A DNA stretch of 45,917 bases from a virus. The translations under genes and the position numbers were made by a program. Positions 8,125 to 45,917 of the stretch are shown here, piece after piece. The stretch is taken from the IMG/VR virus record IMGVR_UViG_3300037761_000323. One strand, given 5' to 3'. Position 1 is the first letter of the stretch. Each line of letters starts with the position of its first letter. The notes beneath the pieces were generated by a model. The model was given only the letters and a program-made list of their open reading frames with translations. It had not been told where the DNA came from and did not search any database.

Positions 8125-8173
8125 GGGGATGCTTCTCCCAAGGTGTAAGGGCGTGAATGGCACGCCCGCCGGC

Positions 8174-14585: not shown

Positions 14586-14969
14586 CTACGGCTCCCTCAA
14601 GAGCGCACGCACGACCGAGACGAAGAGGTAGTCCTTGCGACGCTGGAGCTCGGGGAGAAGGGCGTACGGCACGAGACACGGGTGCAGCTTCGCCTCCGGA
14701 TCCTTGTCCGGCCCGTAGGTCCACCCCTCCTCGAGCTTCCCCTGCATCCAGCGCGCGTGAGCGTCGATCGGGTGGGCGAGCGGGTTGGCGACGAGGAACT
14801 CCACGCCCTCGATCGAGGCCGAGCGCTGCCACTCCGGCGCCTCGTCCCAAGGGAGCTGAGAGTCGTCCCCGATGGTTATGCAGTACGCGCGATTCGCCTC
14901 GTGGACGACGCGGGCGATCGCCTTCACGGGCGGGAGAAGCGCCTTCTCCTGGATGCGCGGGGCGCTCAC
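14586..14969 (-). CDS. RyR-domain protein, 127 aa.
   Basis: EGWTYGPDKDPEAKLHPCLVPYALLPELQRRKDY closely matches the ryanodine-receptor repeat signature (GWTYGP...K.HPCLV.F..LPE.E..Y). The N-terminal half (IARVVHEANRAY...PWDEAPEWQRSASIEGV) also fits bacterial and phage RyR-domain proteins. Confidence 0.85.
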   Translation of the reverse strand: MSAPRIQEKALLPPVKAIARVVHEANRAYCITIGDDSQLPWDEAPEWQRSASIEGVEFLVANPLAHPIDAHARWMQGKLEEGWTYGPDKDPEAKLHPCLVPYALLPELQRRKDYLFVSVVRALLREP

Positions 14970-28201: not shown

Positions 28202-29776
28202 TCAGGCCTCCGCCCGGGGGGTTACCGCGTCTGCACTCGTCTTCTTGGCCTTCTTCTTCGCCTTTTTCCGCTTGGCCTTCTTCTTCGCCTTGGCCTTGGG
28301 CTCGGCCGCCGGCGCCACCTTGGCGACGATCTTCTTCGCGTCGATGCCGAACGGCTTGAGGGCCTTCGGGACCTTCGAGGCGGCACTCCAACTGTCGACG
28401 ACGACCTGGGCGAGGACCTGGAAGGCAGCGTAGCGCACCGCGTCCTCGAGCGTCTCTCCGCGCGCCATCGTCTTCGGTAGCCGGTCGCCCCAGCCGGTGC
28501 ACGCCGCGATGATGCCATGGGGCCCGTCCATGAGGGTGAGCGGATCGGCCTCGCTGAGGTTCACGGCCAGCGCCTCGAGGAGCGCCGGCTCGGCCTTCTT
28601 CCAGCGGGCGCGCTCGGCGTCCTCCCGCTTCCGCTGCTCCTCGTACCTCCGCTGCTCGGCCGCGCGGTCGACCTTGGGCGCCGCCTGACCGTTCGCCCGC
28701 TTGGCCGCCTGCTTGATCTCCGCGGCCCAATGGACGGTGCACTTCTTCTTCGCGATGCACACGGGGAACGCCTCGCCGCGGCCGGGCCCCGCCACCACGA
28801 GCCCGAGCACCTGGTGGTCGCACACCTTCGAGACCTTCGACTTGCCACTCCAGGCCTCGACGTCCTCCTTGCCGTCCGCCCGCCGCCAGTGCTCCCGGCC
28901 GATGGTGCGCGTCTCCGGGTCCTTCGCGTCGTCGCTCACCCGATACTCCCGGGTGATGTGCACGACCTTGAGCTCGAGCTCGGTCGCCGCGCGGAGCGCG
29001 AGCTCGGTCTCGGGGAAGAGGTTGGGGAGGTCGATCTCGTCGACCCGGAAGCGGACGTGATCGCTGATCCAGTGGTCGAGCTCCCGCACGCTCACGGCCT
29101 TCCGGGGATGCTCGTCGTCGTCGTCCCGCTCGTCGTCGAGCTCGAGCCCCCACGCCCCCGGATCGGCGAGCTCCGGCATGAAGAGGCCCGTGACCTGACC
29201 CCACCGCGTCTCACCGCCGAGCGCGCGCCGCTGATCGGTGGCGCTCAGCCGGGACAGGAGGATCGCGTGGCCGGCCGTGATCTCGCCGCCGATGAAGACG
29301 TCCCGGAGCTCGGGGACGAGCTCGCGCAGCTTGAGCCGGTCGTACACGTACTTCCTCGAGCGCCCGATCTTGCCCGCGATCTGCTCGACGTCGTAGCCGG
29401 CCCTGAGCATGAGGTCCGCGTAGCCGTTCGCCTCCTCGAGGGGGTGGAGGTCGTCCCGCTGGAGGTTCTCGATCGTCTGGAGCTCCAGGCACTCGACGTC
29501 GGAGAGATCGCGCAGGATGCAGGGAACCTTGTCGATCTGCGCGATGATGGCCGCGCGGAGGCGGCGCTCCCCGACGACGAGCTCGAACCGCTCCCGGAGG
29601 CCACCCTGCACGCTGGCGCTCAGGGCTCGCACCACGATCGGCTCGATCATGCCCTTCGACGCGAGCGAGCGAGCCAGCTCCTCGAGCTTCGCCGAGTCGA
29701 ACGTCTTGCGCGGGTTCGTGGGGCTCGGCTCGATGTCCCGGACCGCAATGACCTGGAACGTGCCGAAGGCGTGCAT
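28202..29776 (-). CDS. ParB/Srx-family protein, 524 aa, with a large C-terminal extension and a Lys/Ala histone-like tail.
   Basis: IEPSPTNPRKTFDSAKLEELARSLASKGMIEPIVVR...ELVVGERRLRAA is the ParB N-terminal box. An HTH region follows (YDVEQIAGKIGRSRKYVYDRLKL). The tail PKAKAKKKAKRKKAKKKAKK is encoded at 28241-28300. Confidence 0.85.
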   Translation of the reverse strand: MHAFGTFQVIAVRDIEPSPTNPRKTFDSAKLEELARSLASKGMIEPIVVRALSASVQGGLRERFELVVGERRLRAAIIAQIDKVPCILRDLSDVECLELQTIENLQRDDLHPLEEANGYADLMLRAGYDVEQIAGKIGRSRKYVYDRLKLRELVPELRDVFIGGEITAGHAILLSRLSATDQRRALGGETRWGQVTGLFMPELADPGAWGLELDDERDDDDEHPRKAVSVRELDHWISDHVRFRVDEIDLPNLFPETELALRAATELELKVVHITREYRVSDDAKDPETRTIGREHWRRADGKEDVEAWSGKSKVSKVCDHQVLGLVVAGPGRGEAFPVCIAKKKCTVHWAAEIKQAAKRANGQAAPKVDRAAEQRRYEEQRKREDAERARWKKAEPALLEALAVNLSEADPLTLMDGPHGIIAACTGWGDRLPKTMARGETLEDAVRYAAFQVLAQVVVDSWSAASKVPKALKPFGIDAKKIVAKVAPAAEPKAKAKKKAKRKKAKKKAKKTSADAVTPRAEA

Positions 29777-30276: not shown

Positions 30277-30583
30277 GCTGTACCCCCTTGAGTGAGTGAT
30301 CCACCGCCAACGAAAAGCACCGGAGCAGAGGCCCCGGAGTCGTCTTTAGGATGAGCATGAGCGACGAGACGAGCCGCCCGTGCTCGATCGCCGTCTCGAT
30401 CGCCGACGCGACGAGGAGCGGGAGCTCCTGCTCCTTGCCGACGAAGGTTGCGAAACTCTTGGTCTCTTCGCCGCTCGTGTCGGCCACGATCGCGATGCCC
30501 ACGGTGCCCTCGAGGATCGCCGCGTGATCCCCGGACCGGACCGTGATCTTGACCGGCTCGCCTCCTGCGATCTCCTCCTTCAT
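30161..30583 (-). CDS. 140-aa hypothetical protein. Its last 38 codons overlap the next gene out of frame.
   Basis: ATG at 30583 overlaps the stop of the annealase gene (ATGA). GC3 collapses after 30276, so the tail is probably run-on. Confidence 0.5.
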   Translation of the reverse strand: MKEEIAGGEPVKITVRSGDHAAILEGTVGIAIVADTSGEETKSFATFVGKEQELPLLVASAIETAIEHGRLVSSLMLILKTTPGPLLRCFSLAVDHSLKGVQHGRAQEGSGPDAGGEAEPGTGGEGTPGDPQEAPPEDRG

Positions 30584-31674
30584 CGCTTGCCGAGCTCCCC
30601 GATCCAGTACTCCACGGCGTCGTTCCAGCCGACCGACTTCGCCGCCTCGATGAGGATGCGCTCCTCCCCGTTGACCTTGTGCGAGTCGAGCAGCTCGTCG
30701 AGCACCATGAGGCGCTCGGGGCCGGTCGGGAAGTCCCTGGCGAGCTCCTTCATGGCGTCGTCCCAGCGGCCGCGGTTCCTGCGCGTGAGCTCCTCGACGA
30801 TGAGCCAGTCGTCCATCGTGCCGATCTCGCCGAGCTTCGCCGCGGAGGCGTATCGCTCGCGGAGCCCGGGGTGCGTTTCGACCACCGCGTCGAGGTGGTA
30901 GACCTTGAGCCGGTGCTGATTCATGAAGGCCCGCACGCTGTCGCGACACCGTTGGATCTCGGCCTTCACCTCCTCGGGGCTTGGCGCCTTCGGCTTGGCC
31001 GGCGGCTGAGGTGGCTCCCCTGGGGTGCCAGCTTCACGCGCCGGCGGCGAGCCCTCGGCCAGGCCGACCGACGCCTCGAGCTCCGCAGCGGAGAGCGACG
31101 CATCGTAGCCCGGGATCTCGCCCGGATACGACGGACGGCCCTCGAGGCCGGGCGGATCCCACTTGCAGGCGCCGCCGTCCTTGAGCTGCGCCGTGTAGCG
31201 GCCGTTGTCGTTCACGATGCCGAAAAGGTGGCCGACCTCGCGGAGATAGAGCCCGATCCCGAAGAGCTCGCACGCCCGCTTGAAGGCGTTGGAGAAGTCG
31301 CCCTTGCCGGCGTCGACCGCCTTGAACTTCTCGTCGCTCTCGAGGAAGCCGGCCCCGTCCCAGCGCCACACCCACTCATGCACGTCGGGCAGGCCGTGGA
31401 CGTCGAAGGTCTGCACGACCCGGATCCCGACGCCGATGTACGTGTGGCCGGCGGAGACGCGGGCGTCGGACTGCCAGCCGCCGATCCCGCATACCTGGTT
31501 GAGCCGGTTGATGAGCGCCGGTCGGTTCACGTACGGGGCGCAGAGCACGAAGGGGCCCTTGGTGCCCTTCTTCGCGAAGATCGCTCTCCACTCGAGGTCG
31601 GCGGGCTCGAACGGGCGACGTAAGGCGGCGTAGAGCGCCGCCGCGGGCGTGGGGCTCGACATGGTGGTCAACAT
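30580..31674 (-). CDS. Rad52/Sak-type single-strand annealing protein with a C-terminal extension, 360-364 aa.
   Basis: APYVNRPALINRLNQVCGIGGWQSD...WDGAGFLE...GKGDFSNAFKRACELFGIGLYL matches the Rad52/22 core pattern. From the leader-word spacing, the second ATG at 31662 is the likelier start. Confidence 0.7.
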   Translation of the reverse strand: MLTTMSSPTPAAALYAALRRPFEPADLEWRAIFAKKGTKGPFVLCAPYVNRPALINRLNQVCGIGGWQSDARVSAGHTYIGVGIRVVQTFDVHGLPDVHEWVWRWDGAGFLESDEKFKAVDAGKGDFSNAFKRACELFGIGLYLREVGHLFGIVNDNGRYTAQLKDGGACKWDPPGLEGRPSYPGEIPGYDASLSAAELEASVGLAEGSPPAREAGTPGEPPQPPAKPKAPSPEEVKAEIQRCRDSVRAFMNQHRLKVYHLDAVVETHPGLRERYASAAKLGEIGTMDDWLIVEELTRRNRGRWDDAMKELARDFPTGPERLMVLDELLDSHKVNGEERILIEAAKSVGWNDAVEYWIGELGKR

Positions 31675-31743: not shown

Positions 31744-32277
31744 TCAGCGTCCAACCTGCACGGGCTTCCGCTCGAAGTGGGGAAGGTCGTCGAAGCTCTG
31801 ATCGTCGACCTGGCGGTTCCCGTTCCAGTCGCCGCCCCACCGGATCGGGATGCCGAGCTCCTCCGCCACGCCGCACACGTAGCCCCCGAAGTAGTACCAG
31901 CGGGCGAGGTCCTTGGCGTACTCCTCGATCGCCGCGAGCAGCTCGTCGGCCTCCTCGGGAGCTGAGCCCGATCGCGTCTCCCGGACCTGCTCGTCGACGA
32001 GCTCGGCGATGCGCTTCCTCACCTTGTTCGTAGTCGGCCACTCGAGCGGGTCCGGCGCCGCGTCGACGGCGTTGGAGAGCGGCTTGTCGAGGTGCCTCGA
32101 GTCCATCGTCTTCGAGACGCCCTTCTTCACGTTCGCCCGCTGCTGCTCGATCGAGCGCGACGTCTCGAGGATCGTGTTCGGGAACCGCTCCCCGACCCGA
32201 AGGAAGAGCTCCTGGAGGAACTCGTGCGCGTCCTCGAGGCGCTCGAGGGACTTCTTCCCGTAGTTGCTCGTCGCCAT
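31744..32277 (-). CDS. Endolysin, peptidase M15 (VanY / L-Ala-D-Glu peptidase-like), 177 aa.
   Basis: SRHLDKPLSNAVDAAP (H-x6-D zinc site) and IRWGGDWNGN...DDLPHFE are typical of M15 cell-wall peptidases. ATG at 32277 is preceded by AAGGGG. Confidence 0.8.
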   Translation of the reverse strand: MATSNYGKKSLERLEDAHEFLQELFLRVGERFPNTILETSRSIEQQRANVKKGVSKTMDSRHLDKPLSNAVDAAPDPLEWPTTNKVRKRIAELVDEQVRETRSGSAPEEADELLAAIEEYAKDLARWYYFGGYVCGVAEELGIPIRWGGDWNGNRQVDDQSFDDLPHFERKPVQVGR

Positions 32278-32282
32278 CAGAC

Positions 32283-32311
32283 TTGCCCCTTGTCGCGATA
32301 GGTGGTATGGT
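32283..32311 (+). promoter_or_regulatory. Candidate sigma70-type promoter for the plus-strand DUF932 block.
   Basis: TTGCCC (32283-32288), a 17-nt spacer, then TATGGT (32306-32311), about 37 nt upstream of the ATG at 32348 in the divergent gap. This is a pattern match only. Confidence 0.3.
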
Positions 32312-32329
32312 AGGGGTGCAGGCACATAT

Positions 32330-32343
32330 CCCCTCGGAAGGAG
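32330..32343 (+). promoter_or_regulatory. Copy of the leader word CCCCTCGGAAGGAG.
   Basis: Ends 4 nt upstream of the ATG at 32348. Confidence 0.5.
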
Positions 32344-32347
32344 AACG

Positions 32348-33484
32348 ATGATGGCACACGAACTGGATTACAGCGACTCCATGGGCCGGCACGCGATGTT
32401 TTCGGTCAAGGAGACACCGTGGCATCGCCTCGGGATCGTCCTCGAAGATTCGCCCGACGTCGACTCGGCTCTACGCCTCGGCGGCCTGGATTTCGAGGTC
32501 GAGAAGGTCCCCCACTTCATCCGGCTCGACGGGCTCGATGGGGCCGTCGAGTACAAGCGGAGCGGCGACGCCTTCTCGATCGTGCGTCGCGATCGCCAGG
32601 AGGTGATCGGCACGGTCGGGAGCACCTACGAGCCGCTCCAGCAAGAGACGGCCTTCGGAGTACTCCGGCCCGTGGTCGATCAAGGCCTCGCCACGATCGA
32701 GACGGCCGGCGTGCTGCGCGGAGGGAAGCAGGTTTGGATGCTCGCCCGCTTCAACCTGGGCGAGATCGTCCGGCGCGCGATCGAGCAGGGCGGCGACCCG
32801 ACGCTGATCGAGCTGATCGCGAACGAGGTCGTTCCTTACGGCCTCTTCACCAACGACCACTCCGGCGCGGCCAAGGCCCGGATGAAGGAAACGGCCGTCC
32901 GCGTGGTCTGCGCCAATACGTTCGGCATGGCGATGGGCAAGGCCGAAGAGGGCACCTCGGTCGAGATCACGCACGGGAAAAACATCGAGGAGCTATACCG
33001 GACGGCGGCAAACATGATGCTCTCCGGCGTGGCGCAGCGGTACGCGCAGCTCGCTCGGGCCCGTGCGCTTCTGGAGACGACGGACCTCCGCGGGATGGAG
33101 GAGCGGCCCTTCCGCCGGCTCGTGCTCGATCCCACGGTTCCGATCCGTCACCTGGAGCGGAAGGTCCAGCGGCGCGAGGACACCGTGCGGACCCGGATCG
33201 CGCTCGACGCGGCCCACGGCAAGCGCGCCGAGATCCGGAGGCTATGGGACGAGGGCGACGGCCACACGGGCAGCGGGAGCGCGTGGGAGGCGTTCCAGGG
33301 CCTCGTCCAGTGGACCGACCACTCCTCGCAGTCGCTCAACGGCCAGGAGGAGCGCGACGAGCGCCGGGCCACGAGCCTCTACGACGGCACGCTCGGCAAC
33401 ATCAAGTCGAAGGTCGCGCGGGGCGTGTTCGCCTACGCGGCCGCGGAGAACGAGGACGAGCGGCTGGCGCTGCTCGCTGACTGA
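32348..33484 (+). CDS. DUF932-family protein (phage/plasmid-associated), 378 aa.
   Basis: ETPWHRLG...GGKQVWMLA...FTNDHSGAAKARMKETAVRVVCANT matches the DUF932/TIGR03299 pattern. Confidence 0.8.
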   Translation: MMAHELDYSDSMGRHAMFSVKETPWHRLGIVLEDSPDVDSALRLGGLDFEVEKVPHFIRLDGLDGAVEYKRSGDAFSIVRRDRQEVIGTVGSTYEPLQQETAFGVLRPVVDQGLATIETAGVLRGGKQVWMLARFNLGEIVRRAIEQGGDPTLIELIANEVVPYGLFTNDHSGAAKARMKETAVRVVCANTFGMAMGKAEEGTSVEITHGKNIEELYRTAANMMLSGVAQRYAQLARARALLETTDLRGMEERPFRRLVLDPTVPIRHLERKVQRREDTVRTRIALDAAHGKRAEIRRLWDEGDGHTGSGSAWEAFQGLVQWTDHSSQSLNGQEERDERRATSLYDGTLGNIKSKVARGVFAYAAAENEDERLALLAD

Positions 33485-33495
33485 CGCGCAGAGGG

Positions 33496-33521
33496 CCGGG
33501 GGGCTCAGGCGAGCCCCCCGG
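33496..33521 (+). terminator. Perfect 11-bp GC hairpin after the DUF932 gene.
   Basis: CCGGGGGGCTC aggc GAGCCCCCCGG. There is no U-run, so it may act as a terminator or as a stabiliser. Confidence 0.55.
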
Positions 33522-33554
33522 TAATGCACAGGCCCGGTCCCAAGTCCGGGCACT

Positions 33555-34998: not shown

Positions 34999-35532
34999 TC
35001 ACGGGGCCCCCGGGTACGTCCGGGGGCCCGACTCCTCCTCCCCCCGGGGCGGCGCTCCCGGGGGGTTCCCTTCGCCCTTCACGCGCCTCGAGCCGCCAGT
35101 CGCCGAGCGGAGCTTGGCGAGCACAGTCCCAAAGAGCGGGATCCTCCGCCCGCCGAGTGCGACCACATGGTCCTCGATCGACTCGAGCTCGTCGGCCACG
35201 AGCATCAGCGCGATCATCGAGCCCCCGATCCCGATACCCATGACGTCGGGGAGGCCGACGACGGGCAGGATCGACTCGAGCGTCCTGAGCAGGAGGAGGA
35301 TCATGAGCGTGCCCGCCTTGGAGTGGATCCCCGCCCTCGATCGTGCCCGGTCGTACCTGTTGGCGTAGAGCGCCACGCGCCGGCCCCAATACCAGTCGAT
35401 CGCGTTCGCCACGATGAGCACGAGGAAGAGGAGCCCAAAGACGTCCGGATACACCCAGCCGAGAAAGCCGCCGAGCGCGCCCGCGCCGACGCGGAGCGAG
35501 TCGACATCCTGGTCGAGACGGTAGAACATCAT
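34999..35532 (-). CDS. Holin (phage_holin_4_1 / toxin-secretion-lysis holin family-like), 177 aa.
   Basis: Three hydrophobic segments, IDWYWG...SRAGIHSKAGTL..., and ADELESIEDHVVALGGRRIP resembling the E.SI.EN...G..iP family motif. The start ATGATG overlaps the stop of the giant gene. Confidence 0.65.
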   Translation of the reverse strand: MMFYRLDQDVDSLRVGAGALGGFLGWVYPDVFGLLFLVLIVANAIDWYWGRRVALYANRYDRARSRAGIHSKAGTLMILLLLRTLESILPVVGLPDVMGIGIGGSMIALMLVADELESIEDHVVALGGRRIPLFGTVLAKLRSATGGSRRVKGEGNPPGAPPRGEEESGPRTYPGAP

Positions 35533-38500
35533 CCGCCTCCGCCCGGGAGCTCCCGGCCGAGCGCGCTCTGCGCGAGCTCGCGGGCCACGCGCCCGAGCGC
35601 GTCCACCGCGGCACGCTTGTCCTCCGGGCTCATTTCCTGGTCGCGGCGGATCGCTTCGACCTGAGCGCGGAGCTCCGCGAGATCGGCCGCGGCGGCCCTG
35701 AGCGTGGGCTCGCGCTGCCTGAGATCGGAGAAGGCCGGGTCGGCCAGCTCCGCCTCGTACGCCTCGACGTTGCCGCTGCGCTCGAGATAGCGGAGCGAGC
35801 TCGTCGCCACGCGCGCCTCCTCGTAGACCTGGTAGAACCGCGCGATCGACTCCGAATTGAAACCGGCCTGCGGGTCCAGAACGCCGCGGATGCCCGGGAC
35901 GTCCGTGGCCCGACCGCCGATCGGCGGAACGTCGCCAGACGTGAACGGAAGCCGGCCCTCGAGGAGCGGGTCCGCCAGCTCCGTCGCGACTCGGCCGAGT
36001 CCTCCAGTCCAGGCGAAGAGGAGGTTGTCGATCTCGCGCGGGCTGCCGATGAACTCGCTCGCAATCGGGATCCGATGCGTCCAGCGGGCGAGCATCTTCG
36101 CGACTTCCGACGTGTAGGGGCCCGCCTGGTACTGCACGCGGACCTCCTCCTCCGACTCGGGCACGATCGGGCGGCGGAGGAAGAAGCTGTAGTTGACCGC
36201 GTTCTCGATGAGCGGCTCGATCGCCGTAGGCGACGGGAGGAGACCCGAGACCTGGCCGCCGGCGAACTCCTCGAGGAAGGCTCGGAGCTCATGCCCCCCG
36301 CCGGGGCCCTTGATCGCGGAGTCGAGGATCCGCACGGGCAGGGTCCCGAAGATGAGCCCGAGCTCGAACGGCTTGGGGACAACCACCCAATCGTCGCCGA
36401 TGCGGAAGTGCCAGAAGAGGTCGCGCTCCCATTGGGCTTTCTCCCAATAGTCCGGGTCGTCCATGTTCGAGTAGTACTCGAGCAGCGACGGGACCGTGAT
36501 GATCGCGAAGGCTTTAGCGGTGAAGCCCACCGGGTCTTCGTGGGCCGCTCGAGCCATGCGCTCGTAGCCCTGGAGGCGGGCGTTCCAGAAGGCCGATAGG
36601 TTCCGGATCGCCGCTGTCTTCGCCCCATGGCGAGCGAAGTCGATCGAGACCTCCCTCGAGGCGAGCGCGGCCTGCTGGAGGGTCTCCTTCGCATACGGGC
36701 CCTTGGCCCCCTTGCCGAGCGCGAGCTGGACGCGGCCCTTGAACCCGTGGGCACCGCCGAAGGCGTGCTGCTGAGCTCGAGCGTTGAGAAACTCGCCCAT
36801 CCGGGTCGCGTCCTCCATGAGCGCGGACAGCGCTTGGAGCGCGTCGAAGGGAGTCTTGAGGACGTTCCTGATGCCGCCGCCCTCGACGAGGTTCGTGACT
36901 GCGTTCTGCATCGACTTCCGATCGAGCGACGTGAGTGCCGCACGGTAGCCTCCGGCGGAAAGCCACTGTTGATAGGCCTCGCCGCGGCGGAAGAGCTCGA
37001 AGATCCCCCGGGCCATGTCGACGCCCGGCACATAGCCGTACTCCGATTGGATGAAGGCCATGACCTGATCGCGGAGCGGGTTCCTGATGAGGAACTCCGG
37101 GGCGAGCGTAGCGCCGGCGCGGAGCGTGCGGGCCGGGATGCCGAGCCAGCGAGCCCAACCGTCGAGCTGCTCCGTGTTGAGCCCCTCGAGCGCGGCGTAG
37201 AGCTCCTTGTCGACCTCGTACCACGCGCGGCGGCCGTCCTGGAGGACGGAAATGACGTTGGGCTTGCCCATGTAGTCGCCGGGCCGGAAGAAGGCCAGGA
37301 CCTCCTCCGCCGGGTCGTCGAGCGTGATACCCGAGGTGAGGATCTCCCCAGGGGTCATGCCCGCCGTCGCCGCGTCGTAGCGCTCCTGGGCGAGGCGGCG
37401 CACCCGCGCGAGGAGCTCGTCGGATCCAGGTAGGATCTCTGCGAGCTGCTTCTCGATCTCGCCCAGCGTGAGCTCGACCCGCTTGATCGGGCTCCCGAGC
37501 TTCTCGAGCACGCTGCCGACGCCGGGCTTGTTGGCGAGCGACGCGAGCGCACGGCTGACCTGTTGTTTCTGCGCGATCTGCGTGTAGACCATCGCGTTCT
37601 TCGCGAGCGACTCGAGCGGGTCGATCACATCGAGCCCCGAGCCCTTGAGGCGCTTGATCGGGCTGAAAAGATGGCCGTACGTCTCCCCCAGGCCTCCGGC
37701 CGAGCCGCCCTCGCGCACCCGGTAGAAGGGCACGTACGACTGATTGAGCTCGAGGATCGCGTCGTAGCTGTCAGAGCTGATGACGCCCGAGTCGCGGAGG
37801 TACTTGAGCAGGCCCTCATTCCACTCCTGGACCCCCTTGAAGGCCTCGGTGAAGCGATCGCCATGCTGGGCGTCGAGCTGGCGGACCGAGGCGTCGACGT
37901 CCTCGTTCCGGAAGCCCGTTAGCTTGTCGCGCCCGTGGAGCTCCTGCGCCCGGCGGGCGACCATGTAGATCCGGAAGTCGTCGAGGTCCTCCACGACCGG
38001 AGCGATGATCTGCTTGAGCCCGGGCCCGATCTTGCGGAGCGTGCGGAAGTCGATCATGCCGTGCTCGAGGACGTGCATCCCCACGCCCACCGAGCCGCGT
38101 GACAGGCGGGCGAGTGAGTCGGCCTCGTCGGCGAAGTCCTCGACCCCCACACCCTCGCGGATCTTCTCGACGAGGCGGCGCACCGGCTCCATGTCGTCCA
38201 GGACGATCGTGCGCGCCCTCGACCACCGCTCCTCGATCGAGAGGGCCGGGGCGTCGCGATCGCCCACGCTGATCTTCGACCACACCCGGGAAAGCGCGTC
38301 GCTTTCGCGGTAGCGGGTCCAGTCGGCTCGAGCGTTCTGCCAGGACGCCCGGAGCTCGGGGAAGCCCTCGAGGCGCTCCTCGACGAAGCGGAGCGTGTTG
38401 GGGGCCTCCCTGGGGAGGACGTCGGGGTTGTCAAGGTAGCGCCGCCAGAACTCGGCCCATCCCTCGGCGAGCGATTCGTCGCTGATCCCCTTCGAGAGGT

Positions 38501-41500
38501 CGTCGAGCTCACCGCGGATGGGACCCGGAAGCGCCTTGAGGTCGGCGTTGCTCAGGTTCCCCCGCGGCGTCGAGCCGAAGAAGAGCTTGTGCATGGCGTG
38601 GCCCGCCTCGTGACCGAAGACGGGCACGTCGCTGATGTCCACCTGGCGAATGACTTGCTGGCGTGCCTTGAAGATCCCGAGCGTCTGGAGGAGGGGGTTC
38701 CTGGAGCGCGGGACGCGGCCGGTCGCAACCTTGAGGCCGAGCGCGGGCATCGCCTCATCCATCGCCTCGCCGAGCTTCCCGATGATCTCGACGGGCGAGA
38801 CGAGATCGGCCCGGATCGCCTGCGGGTTCTCGTAGAACTTGCCGGCCGAGGGGAGGCGCTCGCCGGCCTGCGCCGTGGGCGCGAGCGCCCTCGTTCCGAC
38901 CTCCTCCGGGTCGATGCGCCGCTCGAGGACGTTGAACGTCTCGGCCGCCCGGCGAGCTCCCGGCGACGGGCGATAGCGGCCCATGCCGACGAAGCCGAGC
39001 CCCGCCCCGACCGAGGCGCCCAGGAAAGCCCCGAACGCCGGGGAGAGCCCCACCTCGTCGGCCACGGCCGCGCCGCCCGTCGCTCCGATCGCCGCGCCAG
39101 CGAGCGGGCGCAGGAGGGCCGGGTGCAAGTAGCCGAGCCGCTGGCCTTCCGTCTTGATCTTGGCGATGAGCTCGGGGGTGAGGCGAACCCCGAGGTTCGT
39201 GACCGGGGCCTCCCACGTTTGGATCTCCCTGATCTCCGGGTAGAGCTCGATGCGCTGCTTCCAGGCCTCGAGCAGCTCGGGCGTCGCGAACAGACCTTGT
39301 TCGTCGATCGTCTTCTGGATCGCCGCGGGGCCCGAGGAACCCTCGACGACGTAGCGCCTCACCTGGTTCGCCATGAACCTGATGCGCGTCGCCAAGTCCT
39401 CGACGCCGGCGGGCTCGCGGGGCTCCATGCCGAGCAGCTCGACCGCTTCTTGTGTGTTGTTGACCAAGCGGTTGAGCGCCCTCGCCTGATTTTCGGGGAA
39501 GCCCTGCGTGGGGCGAGTCGTCGTCGCACTTTCCACCCACTCGTCCCCCACCAGCACGCCCACCTCCGATACCCGGAACGGCTCGATCTTGGCGTCCAGC
39601 TTGAGGCTGCGCAGATATTTCCTCACGACGCCCGTGTAGATCACGTCGTAGTACTGCTTCATCGCGTGGCCGCCGATCTGCACTCCGCGATCGAACTCGA
39701 GGCGGAGCAGATCGTCAGAGGAGCCTTTCCCGCCGACGCCACGAACGAAGGCGTCGACCTCATCGAGACGGTCGACGATCTGTGTGAGGTTCACCTCGTT
39801 GTATCCCGTCTCCACCTCGACCCGGTAGCCGATCTCCTCAACCGGAAGGCCGAGGATCCGGAGCTGATTCGTGAAGGCGAGGTTGGCCGCCTCCTGGTCA
39901 ATGAGGACGGTGGACCGCCAGAGGACGTTGGCGTCCCCCTCGTCCACATGCCCAGCGGGAAGGTGGTAGATGTTGAGCTCGAGCGTCCCCCCCTCCGTGG
40001 GCTCCCGGATGGCGAAGTACCGATCTCCGTTCGGCGCCTCGTAGTCTGCCCGCATTTCGTAGCCGTGGCCTCCTTGCCGGTAGGTCTGCTCCCACCGAAA
40101 GCCGCCCGTCGCCTGGCTGACCTCGATCACTCCCACGCCCTCGAAACGGCCGTGGACCCTATCCGCACGACCGAGGGCGAGGCGGTCCAGTTGCTCGGTT
40201 CCGCCGTTCCACTCGATTTTGGCCGGAGGACCTTCAACTGGCGCCTTGGCGAGGAGCTCCTCGGCGACGTCGCGGCCGAGCAAGTCGTTGAGCGAGCCGC
40301 GCCCGTCGACGGTCGCGATCTGCTCGGTCGCAACCTGGTTGCCCTTGTACGCCCTGAACGCCCGGGTGCGCTGGTTGAACTCGACGCGGGTGACTCCATA
40401 GCGGGCGAAGTTGTAGTTGTCGGCCGCCTGCTGCCCTGACACCCACGTCATTGCGTCCGCGCCTTCCTCAATGGCCTGCCAGAGCGCCCGCTTGACGTTC
40501 ACGAGCGTCCAGTCCTCCGTGGACTTGAAGGGCACGTCCGGAGCGAGGTTGTTGTTCCGGAGCGCCATTTCCTTCGCGGCCGTCCCGGCGTGACCGTGCG
40601 CCCGGATCCGGCCCTTCCCGTCGACGACGATCCATTGCCAGGTCCCGGGGTCCGGCTGGTTCTGCATCCCAGGCGGAAGCTCGCCCCTCGCGACGTAGGG
40701 AGCCGCCCGCTCCGCAACGCCCTCCCCGTAGAACCGCGTCGCGATCGCCATGGCGTCGCGCTCGAGCTCGACCGGCCGAACCACCCACCCGGCCGGGAGC
40801 CGGTCGGGCTTGTAGCCCTGCTCCCGGCCCTGTTGATGGAGGTCCGACTGGCTCTCCTCGACGTGGTAGACCTCGAGGCCGTCGAAGGTGTCTCGGATCT
40901 TAGCCCGCGAGAAGGCAAAGGGGTCGCGCTCAGTGTGGTGGCCCTTGAAGCCGTGCTCGCCCTCGTCGATCTGCACGATGATCTCGTGGTAGTCCCTGCC
41001 GCCCGGCTGCGTCCATTGCTCGTATCCCGCCGCCAAGTCGGCGCCACCCTCCTCCGCCTCCTCGATCTGCGCGCGCAGGCTCGATATGTCGTTGTGCAGC
41101 TCGTCGATCGTGTCCTGAGTCTCTCGGGCGTACGTCGCGAGGTCGCGCCAGCGCTGCACGGCATCCTCGAGGCCCGATCCGTCGTCGAGATCCCAGCGCT
41201 CGAAGAAGGTGTCGTCGCCGATGGTGTCCCTGACTTCATCGCGGATGAGCTCCATCGTGCGCGTGGAGCCTCTCTCGTTATCAGCGCCCTCCTCGGCGAG
41301 CTCCACGATCCTCGCGTTGAGCTCGTCACGCTGCTTGTCGCTGAGGAGCCCACCTTCCTCCCGGAGAGCGTCGTCGAGCTCCTCGACGTAGCGGCTCGCT
41401 CGGTCCTCGGCCTCGAGGCGCACGTCCGAGTGAGCATCCCCACCGCTCTCGTAGTCCTCGAGCCGGATCTCCATGTCGCTGAGCTCTTCCTGCCGGGTCT

Positions 41501-44249
41501 CGAGATCGCTTTGCAGATCGGCGAGGGCGTCTTGGTCGATGTCTTCGTCCCCCGCGCGGACAGACTCCGTGATCCGCGAACGGAGCCCCTTCTCTTCGAC
41601 GATCTTGGCGACCTCCTCCTTCGTGAACGTCTGGCGGAAGTCCTCGATCGACGGGTCCCATATCGCCTCCAGGATCTCCTTCTCCTGCTCCGTCGAGATC
41701 CGGCCCCTGTTCACGAGGTTCCGCGCGGCGATGTTCGGGCTGGTCCATTGGCCGCCCACGGACTGGTTCTGCATCTCCTCGGCCACCATGTCGACGAGGT
41801 GGCCGTTCTCCAGGAGCCCCGTCCCACGTAGGCGAGCTGCCGTCGCGGTCGTGCGCCGATAGTCGGTCGGCCTGGCAGGCGTGAGGCCCCGCGCAATCGA
41901 GTCGAGCTCGTCCTGCGTGACGCCCTTGTTCTTGAGGTAGGCGAGCCATCCCTCGCCACTCTGCCGGGTAGGCGCCTTGGGCTCCTCGAGCGCTCGAGTC
42001 GCCTGCGAGTAGTAGCGCCCCTGGAGCGGACCCCGCCCGGACGTGGCGAAGCCAGCCTGCCCGGGCGTGATGCGGTTGATCCTTCTCGCGAGGCCAGGGA
42101 GGCCGAGCGCGACCGCTGCCCCGACGAGCGCACCTTGCCCGGCCGTCACTTCCTCGGAGGGACCGCCCACCACAGCTCCGCCCGCGGCGCCGAGCGCCGC
42201 TCGACCGAATGGGCGAGCTGCCGCGGCCGCGGCGATCTCTGCAAACGAGCGGCGGGCCTCCTCGGTGCGTGCACGCACCGGCTCAGCCTCCGGCGCCTCG
42301 GCGCCCAGCTCGGCGGGTCGAGCTGCCTCCGCTGATGGGGCCTCCGCTCGCGCCGCTGGCGCCCCTGGAGCCTCGAGGACCTCGGGCGCCCTCCCGGCAG
42401 GCGTTTCCCGTGAAACGCCTCCTGGGGCCTCCTGGCGCGTCGCGAGGTCTCGAGCCCTGAGCTTGCCCGAGGCCTTCTTCGCGGTCGCGGCCGCTTCGTC
42501 CGCCGCGCGGAACGTCTCACCCACGCCGAACCGAGCGCTGAGCGTGAACTCGGTCCCCTCGATCGGCCGCTCGCCGAGCGCGTCCTGGACGGCCTTGCCG
42601 AGCCTCGCGCCCTCCCCCTTCGGCGCGGCGATCACGAACTCGTCGCCGCCGGCGCGGAAGAGCTGGCGCTGCTCGAGGCCGAGACGCTGCATGATCTTCC
42701 CAACCTCGCCGAGGATCTCGTCGCCCGCCTCGAGGCCGTGCGCGTCGTTGACGGCCTTGAAGTTGTCGAGGTCGACGATCACGAGCTCCGTGTTCGGGTC
42801 CGCGTCGAGGCGCGACTTCGCACGGCTGAAAGCGGTCTGATTGCGGAGGCCCGTCTTCGGGTCGGTGTATGCCTCTTCGAGCTCCTGACGCACGGACGGA
42901 TCGGCTGCCTCGGCGATGCGCCGCCGGATCGTGCGTTGTTCCGGTGGCGGTGCAGACGGTTGCACACCCTCGGGCGCGGCCGCGTCCGGCGCGCGCAGGC
43001 GGTCCTGCTCGGCGCCGAACGCCTCGAGCGCGGCCTGGCGGAGGTTCGGTGGGAGCTCCTCGATCGCCTGCACCATCGCGGGCGCCGGCGTGCCAGAGAA
43101 CTCGGCCGCGGCCGCCATGCGACCGAGCCGCTGCGCTCGAGGAACGGCGCGGCGGCGTCCGAGCGCCTCGAGCCCCTCGCCGAGCCCTTGGCCGAGCACC
43201 CATCCCGTGAGGACCTCGTACGTGCCGCGCGACACGGCATCGCTCGCGACGTCGGCGAGCTCCTCGTCGCCGGTGAGCATCGCCAGCGCACCCGACATCG
43301 ACTCCTCTGCGCCGGCCTGCGAGATCACGACGTCGATCGGAGCTCCGGTCAGGAAGTTTTGGGCCGCCCGCTGCGCGAGGCCCTGCGGCCGTGCGAGGAA
43401 GTTGAGGAACCGCCCGGTCCCGCCGGCGGCCTGCGCCGCTTGAGCTCCCCTCGAGGCCAGCGCACCGGGCATCATGAAGAGCGCACCCTCGCCGGCGAAC
43501 TGCGTCCCGATGTTGGCGGCCAGCCCGAGTCCCGTCTCCGGCTCCGGGTACTCCTCGCGGGCGAGCTCCCTCGAGGCGCGCACGTTCGCCGCGCGCCGGT
43601 CGGTCATGTCGAGCTGCTCGCCCTCGGGATCTGCGATGCGCTCCGCGAAGGGCCGGCGGGCCGCTCGTTCCCCCCTGCCACGCGGCGGGAGCGTCTCGGC
43701 GAGGCCGAGCGCCGTGCGGTGGCCCACCTCCGACGCACCTCGACCGACCTGGCCCGGGATCTCGGGCACGCCCTCCATGAGGCCGAGCATGGCGCGCTCG
43801 GTCGGGCTCAGGAAGTCCTCCCGCATCGAGGGACGCGGCGCCCCGTCCTGCGCGACCTCCTCCTCGTCCTTGCCGAAGATGGCCTCGTAGCCGAGCTGTA
43901 CGGTGCGCCCGACGCCCTTCACGCCTCGAGCGACGCGGCCGAGTACTCCGGGCGGCTGCTCAGGACCGGCAGGCGGCTCGGGCTGGAGGCCGGCGGCCCC
44001 AGGTCCGGGACCACGCGCTCGAGCCGGCCGCCCGGTCGTGTCGGGCGGGGGGGCGGGCCCACGCGCTCGAGCCGGTGGTGCCTCCGTTCCAGCCGGAGGC
44101 GGAGTCGTTCGGCGAACGGGCGGAACCGTCTCAGGCGGAGCCTCGATCGTCTCCGCGGCGGGCTCAGTCGTTCCGCGTGCAGCTCGGACGCGGGCGAGTG
44201 TGCGCTGCCGCCTGATCCGCGCGAGGAGGTCCTCTTGCGTCGTGCCCAC
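35529..44249 (-). CDS. Giant 2906-aa multi-domain (polyvalent-type) virion/ejection protein with GGDEF and HExxH modules.
   Basis: Single uninterrupted ORF. GTG at 44249 directly follows the upstream TAA. It occupies the last ejection-protein position of a P22/T7-like layout. Order of parts: Pro/Ala-rich N-terminus, GGDEF domain, two glycine-zipper hydrophobic patches, HEAGH motif, then a long helical C-terminal region. Confidence 0.85.
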   Translation of the reverse strand: MGTTQEDLLARIRRQRTLARVRAARGTTEPAAETIEAPPETVPPVRRTTPPPAGTEAPPARARGPAPPPDTTGRPARARGPGPGAAGLQPEPPAGPEQPPGVLGRVARGVKGVGRTVQLGYEAIFGKDEEEVAQDGAPRPSMREDFLSPTERAMLGLMEGVPEIPGQVGRGASEVGHRTALGLAETLPPRGRGERAARRPFAERIADPEGEQLDMTDRRAANVRASRELAREEYPEPETGLGLAANIGTQFAGEGALFMMPGALASRGAQAAQAAGGTGRFLNFLARPQGLAQRAAQNFLTGAPIDVVISQAGAEESMSGALAMLTGDEELADVASDAVSRGTYEVLTGWVLGQGLGEGLEALGRRRAVPRAQRLGRMAAAAEFSGTPAPAMVQAIEELPPNLRQAALEAFGAEQDRLRAPDAAAPEGVQPSAPPPEQRTIRRRIAEAADPSVRQELEEAYTDPKTGLRNQTAFSRAKSRLDADPNTELVIVDLDNFKAVNDAHGLEAGDEILGEVGKIMQRLGLEQRQLFRAGGDEFVIAAPKGEGARLGKAVQDALGERPIEGTEFTLSARFGVGETFRAADEAAATAKKASGKLRARDLATRQEAPGGVSRETPAGRAPEVLEAPGAPAARAEAPSAEAARPAELGAEAPEAEPVRARTEEARRSFAEIAAAAAARPFGRAALGAAGGAVVGGPSEEVTAGQGALVGAAVALGLPGLARRINRITPGQAGFATSGRGPLQGRYYSQATRALEEPKAPTRQSGEGWLAYLKNKGVTQDELDSIARGLTPARPTDYRRTTATAARLRGTGLLENGHLVDMVAEEMQNQSVGGQWTSPNIAARNLVNRGRISTEQEKEILEAIWDPSIEDFRQTFTKEEVAKIVEEKGLRSRITESVRAGDEDIDQDALADLQSDLETRQEELSDMEIRLEDYESGGDAHSDVRLEAEDRASRYVEELDDALREEGGLLSDKQRDELNARIVELAEEGADNERGSTRTMELIRDEVRDTIGDDTFFERWDLDDGSGLEDAVQRWRDLATYARETQDTIDELHNDISSLRAQIEEAEEGGADLAAGYEQWTQPGGRDYHEIIVQIDEGEHGFKGHHTERDPFAFSRAKIRDTFDGLEVYHVEESQSDLHQQGREQGYKPDRLPAGWVVRPVELERDAMAIATRFYGEGVAERAAPYVARGELPPGMQNQPDPGTWQWIVVDGKGRIRAHGHAGTAAKEMALRNNNLAPDVPFKSTEDWTLVNVKRALWQAIEEGADAMTWVSGQQAADNYNFARYGVTRVEFNQRTRAFRAYKGNQVATEQIATVDGRGSLNDLLGRDVAEELLAKAPVEGPPAKIEWNGGTEQLDRLALGRADRVHGRFEGVGVIEVSQATGGFRWEQTYRQGGHGYEMRADYEAPNGDRYFAIREPTEGGTLELNIYHLPAGHVDEGDANVLWRSTVLIDQEAANLAFTNQLRILGLPVEEIGYRVEVETGYNEVNLTQIVDRLDEVDAFVRGVGGKGSSDDLLRLEFDRGVQIGGHAMKQYYDVIYTGVVRKYLRSLKLDAKIEPFRVSEVGVLVGDEWVESATTTRPTQGFPENQARALNRLVNNTQEAVELLGMEPREPAGVEDLATRIRFMANQVRRYVVEGSSGPAAIQKTIDEQGLFATPELLEAWKQRIELYPEIREIQTWEAPVTNLGVRLTPELIAKIKTEGQRLGYLHPALLRPLAGAAIGATGGAAVADEVGLSPAFGAFLGASVGAGLGFVGMGRYRPSPGARRAAETFNVLERRIDPEEVGTRALAPTAQAGERLPSAGKFYENPQAIRADLVSPVEIIGKLGEAMDEAMPALGLKVATGRVPRSRNPLLQTLGIFKARQQVIRQVDISDVPVFGHEAGHAMHKLFFGSTPRGNLSNADLKALPGPIRGELDDLSKGISDESLAEGWAEFWRRYLDNPDVLPREAPNTLRFVEERLEGFPELRASWQNARADWTRYRESDALSRVWSKISVGDRDAPALSIEERWSRARTIVLDDMEPVRRLVEKIREGVGVEDFADEADSLARLSRGSVGVGMHVLEHGMIDFRTLRKIGPGLKQIIAPVVEDLDDFRIYMVARRAQELHGRDKLTGFRNEDVDASVRQLDAQHGDRFTEAFKGVQEWNEGLLKYLRDSGVISSDSYDAILELNQSYVPFYRVREGGSAGGLGETYGHLFSPIKRLKGSGLDVIDPLESLAKNAMVYTQIAQKQQVSRALASLANKPGVGSVLEKLGSPIKRVELTLGEIEKQLAEILPGSDELLARVRRLAQERYDAATAGMTPGEILTSGITLDDPAEEVLAFFRPGDYMGKPNVISVLQDGRRAWYEVDKELYAALEGLNTEQLDGWARWLGIPARTLRAGATLAPEFLIRNPLRDQVMAFIQSEYGYVPGVDMARGIFELFRRGEAYQQWLSAGGYRAALTSLDRKSMQNAVTNLVEGGGIRNVLKTPFDALQALSALMEDATRMGEFLNARAQQHAFGGAHGFKGRVQLALGKGAKGPYAKETLQQAALASREVSIDFARHGAKTAAIRNLSAFWNARLQGYERMARAAHEDPVGFTAKAFAIITVPSLLEYYSNMDDPDYWEKAQWERDLFWHFRIGDDWVVVPKPFELGLIFGTLPVRILDSAIKGPGGGHELRAFLEEFAGGQVSGLLPSPTAIEPLIENAVNYSFFLRRPIVPESEEEVRVQYQAGPYTSEVAKMLARWTHRIPIASEFIGSPREIDNLLFAWTGGLGRVATELADPLLEGRLPFTSGDVPPIGGRATDVPGIRGVLDPQAGFNSESIARFYQVYEEARVATSSLRYLERSGNVEAYEAELADPAFSDLRQREPTLRAAAADLAELRAQVEAIRRDQEMSPEDKRAAVDALGRVARELAQSALGRELPGGGG
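38598..38612 (-). other. HExxH zincin motif (HEAGH), residues 1880-1884 of the giant protein.
   Basis: The context is VPVFGHEAGHAMHKLFFG. Confidence 0.6.
42462..42866 (-). other. GGDEF (diguanylate cyclase-type) domain, residues about 462-596 of the giant protein.
   Basis: TDPKTGLRNQTAF...VIVDLDNFKAVNDAHGLEAGDEIL...LFRAGGDEFVIAAP...LSARFGVG...ADEAAATAKKASGK. The GGDEF codons are at 42636-42650. Confidence 0.85.
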
Positions 44250-45524
44250 TTACCGGGGCCCCGCGTTCTCGATGAGCTCGGCGATCTCCTCGTCCGTCGC
44301 GTCCGGGTTGGCCTCGATGATCTTGGCGATCTCCTCGTCCGTAGGCTCCCGGGACGCGCCAGCGGCCGACGAGGTGGGGCGTGGCCCGCTGCCGACGCCC
44401 GTGAGCCTGAGCGCCCGCATTTCCTGTTGGAGCTCGTCCCCGCTCTCGAAGCCGAAGAGCAGGAGTGTGTTCCGGATCTGATCCTCGAGGTAGCCGGCCG
44501 GAAGACGACCACGCTCAAAGGCGTTCATTTCCCGGACCTGGTTCCGGATCCGGTCGATCGCCGTAGATGCCGCGCGTGCCAGCGTGCGGCGCGTGACCTC
44601 GCCCGTGATCCGTCCATCCCCACTCGTCGCTCCAGTGCGGGAGGCCTCCGCCATCGCCTCGCGCCATGCGATCGCGGCGACCTCTCCCTCGGGCGTGTTC
44701 GGGAAGTCGCGGCCCATGACCGTGATGTTGTCCGCGTCCTCGTCGGGGAAGAGCACGCTCCCGGGCACCTGGCCGACGAGCTCGGCGAGCACCTCGGGCG
44801 ACGTCTCTTCGCCGCGCTGGAGGGCCCCCAGGGCCGTCTCGAGGCGGGCGCGCTCCTGCCGGTCCCGCTCCGTCTCCCGCTCCTCTCCGCGGACCTCCCT
44901 CGCCTCGCCGCGCTCTTCGCCCCGGACGGCCGTGGCCTCGGCTCGGGCCGCCGGCGTCGCCGCGCGGTCGATGTAGAGATCCTCCGTCACCTGCTCGAAG
45001 CCGGGTCGGGGGCGCTGGCGCTGGACGGCGTTGCGCCGCCTCGACTCCTGCACGAGGTCCTGGTCCGTGATCGCGCGCTCGGTGAAGCCGAGGCCCTCCA
45101 CCCACGCACCAGGGAGCGCGAGGATCTGCGGCTCCGGCGGAGCGCCCTGCATCTGGATCTGAGTGAGCGCGTCTTGGGCGGGAGCTCCGGACGGGGCCAT
45201 ACCCATCCCCGCGCCCCGGAAGATCGAGGGCGCCTCGTGCTCGGTGCGCTCCGAGGCCATCCCGAACTCCGCGCCGGCGAAGATGTCCTCGTCCGGCGGG
45301 ACGGGCTCGGTCGGCCCGCGGCCGCGGCGCACGCCCGCCTCGTGGAGCTCGATCTCCCGGTCCTCCGCCTCCCGGGCACGCTCCTCCGCGAGGAGCCGCC
45401 GCTCCTCTTCCTCGCGCCGGACCCCCGTGAAGCCCGTCGCCCCCTGCGTCGCGATGTGGCTGAGCGCATCGAACACCCCGGGGACCGGGGTGAAACCAGG
45501 ATCGCGCGGGCTGTAGCGTGCCAT
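44250..45524 (-). CDS. 424-aa ejection/internal virion-type protein.
   Basis: ATG at 45524 preceded by GAGGAGACAACC. Charged coiled-coil-like middle region. Lies between the junction gene and the giant gene. Confidence 0.6.
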   Translation of the reverse strand: MARYSPRDPGFTPVPGVFDALSHIATQGATGFTGVRREEEERRLLAEERAREAEDREIELHEAGVRRGRGPTEPVPPDEDIFAGAEFGMASERTEHEAPSIFRGAGMGMAPSGAPAQDALTQIQMQGAPPEPQILALPGAWVEGLGFTERAITDQDLVQESRRRNAVQRQRPRPGFEQVTEDLYIDRAATPAARAEATAVRGEERGEAREVRGEERETERDRQERARLETALGALQRGEETSPEVLAELVGQVPGSVLFPDEDADNITVMGRDFPNTPEGEVAAIAWREAMAEASRTGATSGDGRITGEVTRRTLARAASTAIDRIRNQVREMNAFERGRLPAGYLEDQIRNTLLLFGFESGDELQQEMRALRLTGVGSGPRPTSSAAGASREPTDEEIAKIIEANPDATDEEIAELIENAGPR

Positions 45525-45534
45525 GGTTGTCTCC

Positions 45535-45917
45535 TCAGCCGGTCGCCAGCGCTGCACCCGCGCCTACGGGCCCGCCGGCGATGAAGCCACCCACGCCACG
45601 CGCCAGCGTGCCGAGTGCGCCGAAGAGGCCGCTCCGGCTCTGTGCGCGCTGGCGGCGGCGCTGCTCCTCCTCGAGGAAGCTCGCGTCGCGCTCGGAGCCG
45701 AGGATCTCGAGGCCGCGCCCGGTCTGACGCTCACCCATCCCGCCGAGCTCGCCCGCCGCCTGGAGGTTGAGCCCCTGCGCCTGGAGCGCGTTCTGGCTGA
45801 GCGTGCGCCCGAGATCGCGGAGCGAGCCCTCGTAGAGCTCGTCCTCGTCCTCGAAGCCGAAGCCCGCGTTGATGCGGCCGCGCCCGACCTGGCTCCCGCG
45901 GAGGTCCCGGATGTTCC
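45535..45917 (-). CDS. 3-prime part of the junction-spanning 212-aa gene.
   Basis: Same frame as the 383->1 segment. Ends ...SGLFGALGTLARGVGGFIAGGPVGAGAALATG (GxxxG-rich, membrane-insertion-like). TGA at 45535-45537. Confidence 0.8.
   Translation of the reverse strand, partial: NIRDLRGSQVGRGRINAGFGFEDEDELYEGSLRDLGRTLSQNALQAQGLNLQAAGELGGMGERQTGRGLEILGSERDASFLEEEQRRRQRAQSRSGLFGALGTLARGVGGFIAGGPVGAGAALATG
45791..45917. repeat. Right copy of the 127-bp terminal direct repeat.
   Basis: Identical to bases 1-127. Confidence 0.95.

Follow-up and report, generated by a model that had tools for sequence, protein, structure and literature searches.

The viral sequence IMGVR_UViG_3300037761_000323, a stretch of 45,917 nucleotides referred to here as the window, encodes on its minus strand a giant protein of 2906 amino acids that, on sequence grounds, is assigned to the LPD38 class of polyvalent phage proteins, and whose residues 460-596 are identified by profile matches and structural modelling as a genuine GGDEF domain with a palm-like α/β fold. 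According to alignment, the metal-binding, guanine-reading and catalytic residues of this domain are in place and the RxxD feedback site is gone, and comparison with related proteins indicates that GGDEF is one interchangeable cargo module of the LPD38-class polyvalent protein. On balance we lean towards a cyclase carried as packaged, injected cargo of that protein, which would make cyclic di-GMP (c-di-GMP) in the new host. The account is built on two features:

35529..44249, minus strand: giant open reading frame (ORF) encoding the predicted LPD38-class phage polyvalent protein, 2906 amino acids, GTG start (translation, guanine-plus-cytosine (GC) content by codon position, Pfam)
42462..42872, minus strand: GGDEF domain, residues 460-596 of the giant protein (Pfam, TIGR00254, AlphaFold2, Foldseek, conservation against the related protein P0001)

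Pfam PF00990 (GGDEF) matches residues 460-594 with E=7.5e-17 and 62 bits, well beyond the gathering score of 23.8, and NCBIfam TIGR00254 matches with E=4e-14 and 52.6 bits (cut-off, 37.4). At the sequence level the segment matches 48 solved diguanylate cyclases, the best being SadC (4wxo, 1.8e-12), with PleD at 2e-7. The AlphaFold2 model of residues 441-606, computed from a 50-sequence alignment, displays a predicted local distance difference test (pLDDT) score of 90.8 and a predicted template modelling (TM) score of 0.84, and its Foldseek comparison with the PDB returned GGDEF domains in all of the top 50 matches (E down to 3.6e-11, TM 0.6-0.74), including SadC, PleD, WspR, DgcZ and DosC. The initial annotation, made from the letters of the DNA, had located a canonical GGDEF domain at 42462-42866 of the minus strand (residues 462-596 of the ORF) and had proposed a PF00990 profile comparison and folding of the segment as checks; both bear the assignment out, the 50 best PDB matches of the model all being diguanylate cyclases. 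The motifs on which that annotation relied are all present, comprising DPKTGLRN (463-470), VDLDNFKAVND (492-502), GLEAGDEIL (505-513), RAGGDEFVI (532-540), LSARFGVG, and ADEAAATAKKASGK ending at residue 596.

The active site was mapped onto PleD, the reference sequence of which was verified against PDB chains (E=3.6e-104). D510 and G534 are separated by 24 residues, the same spacing as PleD D344 and G368, so that the mapping proceeds without a gap and assigns the following residues and sites:

D493: PleD D327, metal binding
N501: PleD N335, guanine reading
D510: PleD D344, guanine reading
R532: PleD R366, cross-dimer Arg
42636..42650, minus strand: active site (A-site) G534-G-D-E-F538, equivalent to PleD GGEEF 368-372 in the PleD alignment
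K592: conserved Lys, phosphate binding
42666..42677, minus strand: position of the I-site, L525-E-Q-R528 standing where PleD has R359xxD362 in the ungapped alignment

The acidic metal-binding positions of PleD (D327 and E370) are thereby occupied by D493 and the G534-G-D536-E537-F538 motif, and the guanine-reading Asn and Asp, which the first reading of the sequence had recognised, stand as N501 and D510. Concerning the phosphate-binding Lys and Arg of the last helix (PleD K442 and R446), K592 is aligned and the R446 position is probably taken by K596; in P0001 the last-helix Lys is displaced by one residue. The RxxD I-site, normally located five residues before GG(D/E)EF, is absent, as had been proposed from the sequence, and the four modules closest to this one likewise do without RxxD. 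Hypr GGDEF enzymes, the cyclic GMP-AMP (cGAMP) synthases of the GacA type, carry a Ser at the guanine-reading Asp position; at this determining position, the sequence alignment gives 'AGD' in the giant protein versus 'VGS' in 6d9m. The presence of Asp510 instead of Ser argues for GTP and c-di-GMP over cGAMP, and a Hypr reading of the domain is rejected on the retention of this residue.

The giant protein joins unrelated domains in a single polypeptide, namely GGDEF, a module with an HExxH signature and LPD38, arranged from the N- to the C-terminus together with the following elements:

43179..43781, minus strand: constant N-terminal block, residues 157-357, 47% identical to residues 194-389 of P0002, the protein of a sister phage, with different cargo after it
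42891..42926, minus strand: lead-in helix IRRRIAEAADPS, residues 442-453, kept upstream of GGDEF in nearly all GGDEF-bearing relatives
42087..42203, minus strand: Gly/Ala-rich hydrophobic hairpin 1, residues ~683-721, Kyte-Doolittle peak 1.44
39120..42086, minus strand: poorly conserved middle region, residues 722-1710, no family match
38982..39119, minus strand: Gly/Ala-rich hydrophobic hairpin 2, residues ~1711-1756, Kyte-Doolittle peak 1.59
35532..38870, minus strand: constant C-terminal module (C-module), residues 1794-2906, common to the whole family
38451..38612, minus strand: zincin-type signature H1880-E-A-G-H1884 ... E1929-G-W-A-E1933, from the homologue alignment
35964..36458, minus strand: LPD38 domain, residues 2598-2762, Pfam PF18857 E=2.6e-33

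In the AlphaFold2 model, the lead-in region is folded as helices H2-9 and H11-20. The two hairpins flank an orphan middle region, for which residues 722-1710 gave no Pfam, PHROG, NCBIfam or PADLOC match and residues 730-1700 no homologue by word-index search; a Gly-zipper match of Pfam to hairpin 1 is weak (E=0.025) and below the cut-off. The C-module begins with a probable metallopeptidase, as suggested by the signature and the modelled structure there. The H, E, H, E and E residues of the signature are invariant in 153-156 of the 157 aligned homologues, and the surrounding region is modelled as a helix, three strands, the HExxH helix and the Glu helix (pLDDT 72-89), a secondary structure in agreement with the zincin core as Iyer et al. 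describe it. Metallopeptidase models of Pfam found no match in the 2906-amino-acid protein, and the AlphaFold2 model of the C-module is poor (pLDDT 55), its best PDB match, anthrax lethal factor, being a weak and non-significant hint (E=0.04). LPD38 is counted among the 'large polyvalent protein-associated domains' and listed as phage-only (Iyer et al. 2017, PMC5512222). In the LPD38 part, at 36474-36530 (minus strand), an acidic 'DDPDYW' motif comes after a hydrophobic helix, and the combination recurs in homologues. The two hairpins and the LPD38 hydrophobic helix are possible membrane-insertion elements, which would fit a role as an ejection conduit.

The assignment of GGDEF as cargo derives from comparison of the family. 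The ~1100-residue module occupies the extreme C-terminus in 40 of 40 relatives retrieved by word-index search, and a HMMER search with it discloses 11,585 cluster representatives at E<=1e-3, 4,604 of them at E<=1e-30. P0002 is 62% identical to the window's protein in the C-module and 47% in the N-block, and displays DdrB-ParB where the latter has GGDEF, and the cargo of other relatives comprises RadC, ART, Zeta toxin, methylase plus helicase, lytic transglycosylase (SLT) and 2H phosphoesterase. These constant ends with differing middles define an architecture of a constant N-block, a swappable cargo and a constant C-module. By means of a hidden Markov model built from the GGDEF alignment, a full GGDEF domain was detected in 11 of the 150 closest family representatives (~7%) and, with the word-index set added, 14 full domains and one partial domain were found among 189; IMG/VR supplies two further giant ORFs with GGDEF. 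In the conservation search that the initial annotation had advised, the domain recurs in P0001 and in the 11 representatives and is replaced by DdrB-ParB in P0002.

Across 16 aligned polyvalent GGDEF modules, the equivalents of PleD D327, N335 and D344 are kept without exception, and the active-site motif reads GGDEF in 14, SGDEF in one and SGDEM in one. Nearly all modules carry a lead-in of the form 'h-R-R-R-h-A-E-x-x-x-P-(S/E)' 20-45 residues before the DxLTG start, and the domain itself lies near the N-terminus in most proteins, and mid-protein or just ahead of the C-module in others. The shared lead-in motif suggests that the polyvalent GGDEF is a common cassette that has moved between positions. 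Compared with P0001, where the same domain is found at the same place on an independent 45.9-kb contig, the giant protein is 69% identical in GGDEF and 70% in the C-module, and 48% and 32% in the flanks (segment 597-1793, ~32%); conservation of GGDEF at the level of the C-module and well above that of the flanks argues for selection on function. The JGI pipeline labels P0001 a 'diguanylate cyclase (GGDEF)-like protein'.

Within the same set of modules, relatives P0105, P0108, P0111, P0115 and P0163 form a subclade with RxxD placed 7-10 residues before GGDEF, not 5, and L007 has Asn at the guanine-reading Asp position. Contig L003:1-1059 (JGI 3300042191, protein P0042) is 100% identical to window positions 42742-43091 over 350 nt, and then, inside the VND codons, gives way abruptly to a GGDEF of bacterial type that has a RESD I-site and is followed by an early stop. 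P0042 (77% identical) was rejected as a natural variant given the abrupt switch of the DNA within a conserved motif on a 1-kb contig, and L003/P0042 is most likely an assembly chimera. The 350-nt identity places the window's phage in the JGI 3300042191 sample.

The giant frame shows the coding pattern of the genome. Spurious ORFs are numerous on both strands of this 69% GC genome, and codon-position GC was used to tell the real frames: the 2906-amino-acid frame has GC1/GC2/GC3 of 0.73/0.48/0.88, as in real genes, and the plus-strand ORFs that overlap it show an antisense GC pattern. The N-terminus of the protein, TTQEDLLARIRRQRTL, is conserved in P0001 and P0002. The window ends in an exact direct repeat of 127 bp (1-127 and 45791-45917), which makes it a circular assembly of ~45,790 bp and probably a complete phage genome of ~45.8 kb. 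Reading along the minus strand, the order is large terminase, portal, major capsid protein, several small genes, a 1011-amino-acid protein and, across the circular junction, a 435-amino-acid protein, the giant protein and the holin, the giant gene being the final gene of the virion operon and directly ahead of the holin. Its immediate neighbours are:

44250..45557, minus strand: 435-amino-acid gene upstream, abutting the giant ORF (ORF list; counterparts of 423 amino acids in L001 and 388 in L002)
34999..35532, minus strand: holin gene directly downstream of the giant ORF (Pfam PF05105 E=1.2e-7)

The contigs of P0001 (45,875 bp) and P0002 (44,817 bp) preserve this gene arrangement, with the holin likewise following the giant gene in the P0002 contig.

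From distant homology and gene position, it can reasonably be inferred that the giant protein is packaged. BLASTP aligns the C-module with the C-terminus of Bcep22 gp75 (E=6e-11 over 408 residues including LPD38, ~24% identity), whose gene follows the virion genes, with two small reverse genes before the lysis cassette. In CsCl-purified virions of JC1, the LPD38 protein gp69 (4515 amino acids, LPD38 at 4195-4401) ranked second by score, with 51 unique peptides and 15.6% coverage (PMC9144972), and the paper on JC1 cites Gill et al. for virion mass spectrometry of Bcep22 gp75 (PMC9144972). Proteomics also detected phage phi24B gp47, which comprises LPD5, LPD1, LPD38 and a MuF-C metallopeptidase, in virions; gp47 is invisible in the cryo-electron microscopy map, and the authors proposed it as an encapsidated ejection protein (bioRxiv 10.64898/2026.04.10.717836). 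The C-module is further encoded in cultured podoviruses of Pelagibacter, Vibrio, Thalassomonas, Shewanella, Bacillus, Ralstonia and Burkholderia. The description of the protein as probably virion-delivered is supported by the LPD38 class, the virion-detected LPD38 proteins and the gene position, grounds other than those first given. No sequence relation to P22 or T7 ejection proteins was detected, the P22 (gp7/gp16/gp20) and T7 (gp14/gp15/gp16) families being absent among the Pfam and PHROG matches, and the likeness to them is confined to the presumed role.

A mechanism can be outlined in steps that we infer with falling confidence: (i) the giant protein would be produced in the late phase of infection and enter the capsid, in line with the published proteomics of LPD38 proteins; (ii) the GGDEF part would travel with the packaged protein; (iii) at the next infection, the protein would leave the capsid with the DNA; (iv) two GGDEF domains would pair, whether the protein stays whole or has been cut by its own metallopeptidase, the pairing being brought about by the lead-in helix or by oligomers of the giant protein; (v) the paired domains would convert two GTP to c-di-GMP free of product inhibition; (vi) the zincin domain may release the cyclase; and (vii) host c-di-GMP would rise before any phage gene expression, probably costing the cell its motility and pili and altering its surface, so that superinfection is blocked or the cell is primed. 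The benefit of this rise to the phage is the weakest step. Interference with nucleotide-based defence would also be possible, and interference with host nucleotide signalling was suggested by Iyer et al. (PMC5512222). A sharper version, in which a feedback-free cyclase injected with the DNA floods the host with c-di-GMP within minutes and ahead of transcription, and in which the RRR-helix lead-in serves as a dimerisation or cleavage signal, is tentative, and we incline slightly against it. If true, it would represent an injected second-messenger synthase serving host takeover, superinfection exclusion or the jamming of nucleotide-based immunity.

Several observations weigh against packaged and injected c-di-GMP synthesis. 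The packaging evidence comes from distant homologues, none of which carries GGDEF, Bcep22 gp75 being 24% identical over LPD38, and P1 DdrB is cleaved before packaging (PMC5512222); the N-terminal GGDEF part could, by analogy with P1 DdrB, be cut off and left behind. The sister phage that encodes P0002 does without GGDEF, which is in this sense dispensable. No c-di-GMP riboswitch was found in the genome, and no PilZ, EAL or HD-GYP partner among the ~40 ORFs scanned. Alternatively, the cyclase might act late in the producing cell, stopping motility, changing the surface or timing lysis, in which case the zincin domain may cut the GGDEF part off before the C-module is packaged. The place of the gene in a late virion operon adjoining the holin would suit such a role, as would the processing before packaging of P1 DdrB, itself a polyvalent protein with a metallopeptidase (PMC5512222), and the virion-detected homologues devoid of GGDEF. 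However, delivery of the full-length protein is reported by Iyer et al. (PMC5512222) for N4 virion RNA polymerase and for the plasmid polyvalent proteins ArdC and TraC1, and an effector borne on a virion scaffold makes most sense if it travels along. Action in the producing cell conflicts with none of the data, and both readings could hold at once; we regard the former as unlikely.

The chemistry of the domain raises a further alternative, in which it would not be a c-di-GMP synthase, but a nucleotide-binding regulatory or structural element, a nucleoside triphosphatase, or a synthase of another product such as linear pppGpG or a mixed dinucleotide. GGDEF domains need dimerisation to work, and no dimerisation domain was identified in the giant protein. 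Leu506 stands where the 'GHxxGD' motif has an almost invariant His, Lys596 probably takes the place of PleD R446, and the C-terminus is shortened, the Pfam GGDEF match ending at profile position 148 of 161 and the final strand being of low confidence in the AlphaFold2 model. GGDEF-like domains with other activities are known, as in the YybT ATPase and the Hypr cGAMP synthases. Yet degenerate GGDEF domains usually lose the GG[DE]EF motif, whereas here the residues for catalysis and guanine specificity are kept in the giant protein and across the 16 modules, and Asp510, not Ser, stands at the Hypr-determining position; a product or function other than c-di-GMP synthesis consequently appears improbable. 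A spurious match, whether by chance, through an assembly chimera or as a dead remnant, was considered as well, the related contig L003/P0042 indeed looking chimeric. This explanation is excluded for practical purposes by E-values of 1e-14 to 1e-17 in two libraries, a confident fold model, the same domain at the same place on the independent contig of P0001, the circularity of the window, and conservation of GGDEF to the degree of an essential module.

GGDEF domains in polyvalent proteins, 'not very widespread', were already described by Iyer et al. 2017 (J Bacteriol, PMC5512222), who proposed that such domains synthesize cyclic nucleotides on delivery at invasion. The protein of the window is therefore a further member of a computationally predicted class. 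Its nearest described parallel is the Acetonema longum prophage protein WP_004096050.1 (PMC5512222), which likewise comprises GGDEF, a zincin-like metallopeptidase and other modules and is predicted to be delivered from the capsid, but also has SNF2 ATPase, DNA methylase and ART domains; profile searches detected none of these, nor a helicase domain, in the 2906-amino-acid protein. Bcep22 gp75, JC1 gp69 ('DarB-like') and phi24B gp47 share the LPD38 C-module, and the genes of the first two likewise close the virion operon, before the lysis genes; the cargo of the three comprises lytic transglycosylase, methylase, helicase, LPD1, LPD3 and LPD5, GGDEF being absent from their domain lists. The 'DarB-like' label of such homologues stems from cargo that the giant protein lacks, P1 DarB being marked by DNA methylase and helicase domains. 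Cellular diguanylate cyclases such as PleD, WspR, SadC and DgcZ display the same fold and the same catalytic, metal- and guanine-binding residues; compared to them, the domain of the giant protein has no sensor or receiver domain, no RxxD, shorter loops and Leu for His, and is embedded in 2906 amino acids. Stand-alone GGDEF proteins are found in phages, including Bacillus phage G (gp350), SP-15, Bordetella FP1/CN1/LK3, Pseudomonas PaSz-4, AN14 and others; most of the matches listed are annotated as diguanylate cyclase or GGDEF protein or are unannotated, and no annotation among them names a virion or polyvalent protein.

T4 Alt ADP-ribosyltransferase and N4 virion RNA polymerase are head-carried enzymes that act before phage gene expression (PMC5512222); the delivery route would be that proposed here, with different chemistry and targets. 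YIP peptides of PB1-like Pseudomonas phages raise host c-di-GMP early by activating YfiN, superinfection exclusion having been raised as one possible benefit (PMC8085984). Their action is indirect, early-expressed and exerted through a host cyclase, whereas the giant protein would bring the enzyme itself by injection. Full-text literature searches brought up no experiments on a phage-borne or injected diguanylate cyclase, nor was a second-messenger synthase delivered from the capsid found in the literature searched. The statement of the initial annotation that no virion-borne GGDEF enzyme has been characterised accordingly held in that literature, the idea itself being that of Iyer et al. 2017 (PMC5512222); its interpretation is supported as essentially right and its novelty was overstated. 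Possibly new are the lack of an I-site in this clade, the lead-in motif common to the modules, the cargo swap between sister phages and a first estimate of GGDEF frequency.

Proteins injected from the head act before phage genes are read and so set the terms of infection. An active injected cyclase would mean that phages rewrite, at entry, a second messenger that governs motility, pili, surface polysaccharide, biofilm and the cell cycle, and that the LPD38 scaffold is a general delivery vehicle for swappable effectors. With 11,585 representatives, and GGDEF in ~7% of the closest ones, a test of one member would inform many. The value of the protein thus lies in a well-defined experimental target, not in a new concept, the prediction having been in print since 2017.

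Regarding the phage itself, the contig index has no entry for the exact 2906-amino-acid protein, a megablast of 21 kb of the window against phages gave no match, and the C-module had no relative among the GTDB genomes scanned. A tblastn search of 50,697 phage records with the portal (9522-11807, minus strand) gave nothing at E<=1e-5, and a weak PHROG match is all that the capsid protein (6748-8289, minus strand) has; by sequence comparison, the structural module is that of a lineage without cultured relative. PADLOC gave no match, no tRNAs were found in the window, and no integrase was found among the ORFs scanned. TerL is ~24% identical to actinophage terminases, and the endolysin resembles L-Ala-D-Glu peptidases from phages of Gram-negative hosts. 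Besides the endolysin, the window encodes methyltransferases, a ParB-like protein of 524 amino acids (28202-29776, minus strand), an Erf-type annealing protein (30580-31674, minus strand) and a DUF932 protein (32264-33484, plus strand). A small protein with an RyR domain (PF02026, E=1.7e-11) is located at 14586-14969 (minus strand), between the terminase and portal regions. Finally, a type-P5 twister ribozyme (Rfam RF02684, 60.4 bits, gathering score 37.6, E=3e-10) lies at 33487-33549 on the plus strand, starting 3 nt past the stop of the DUF932 gene.

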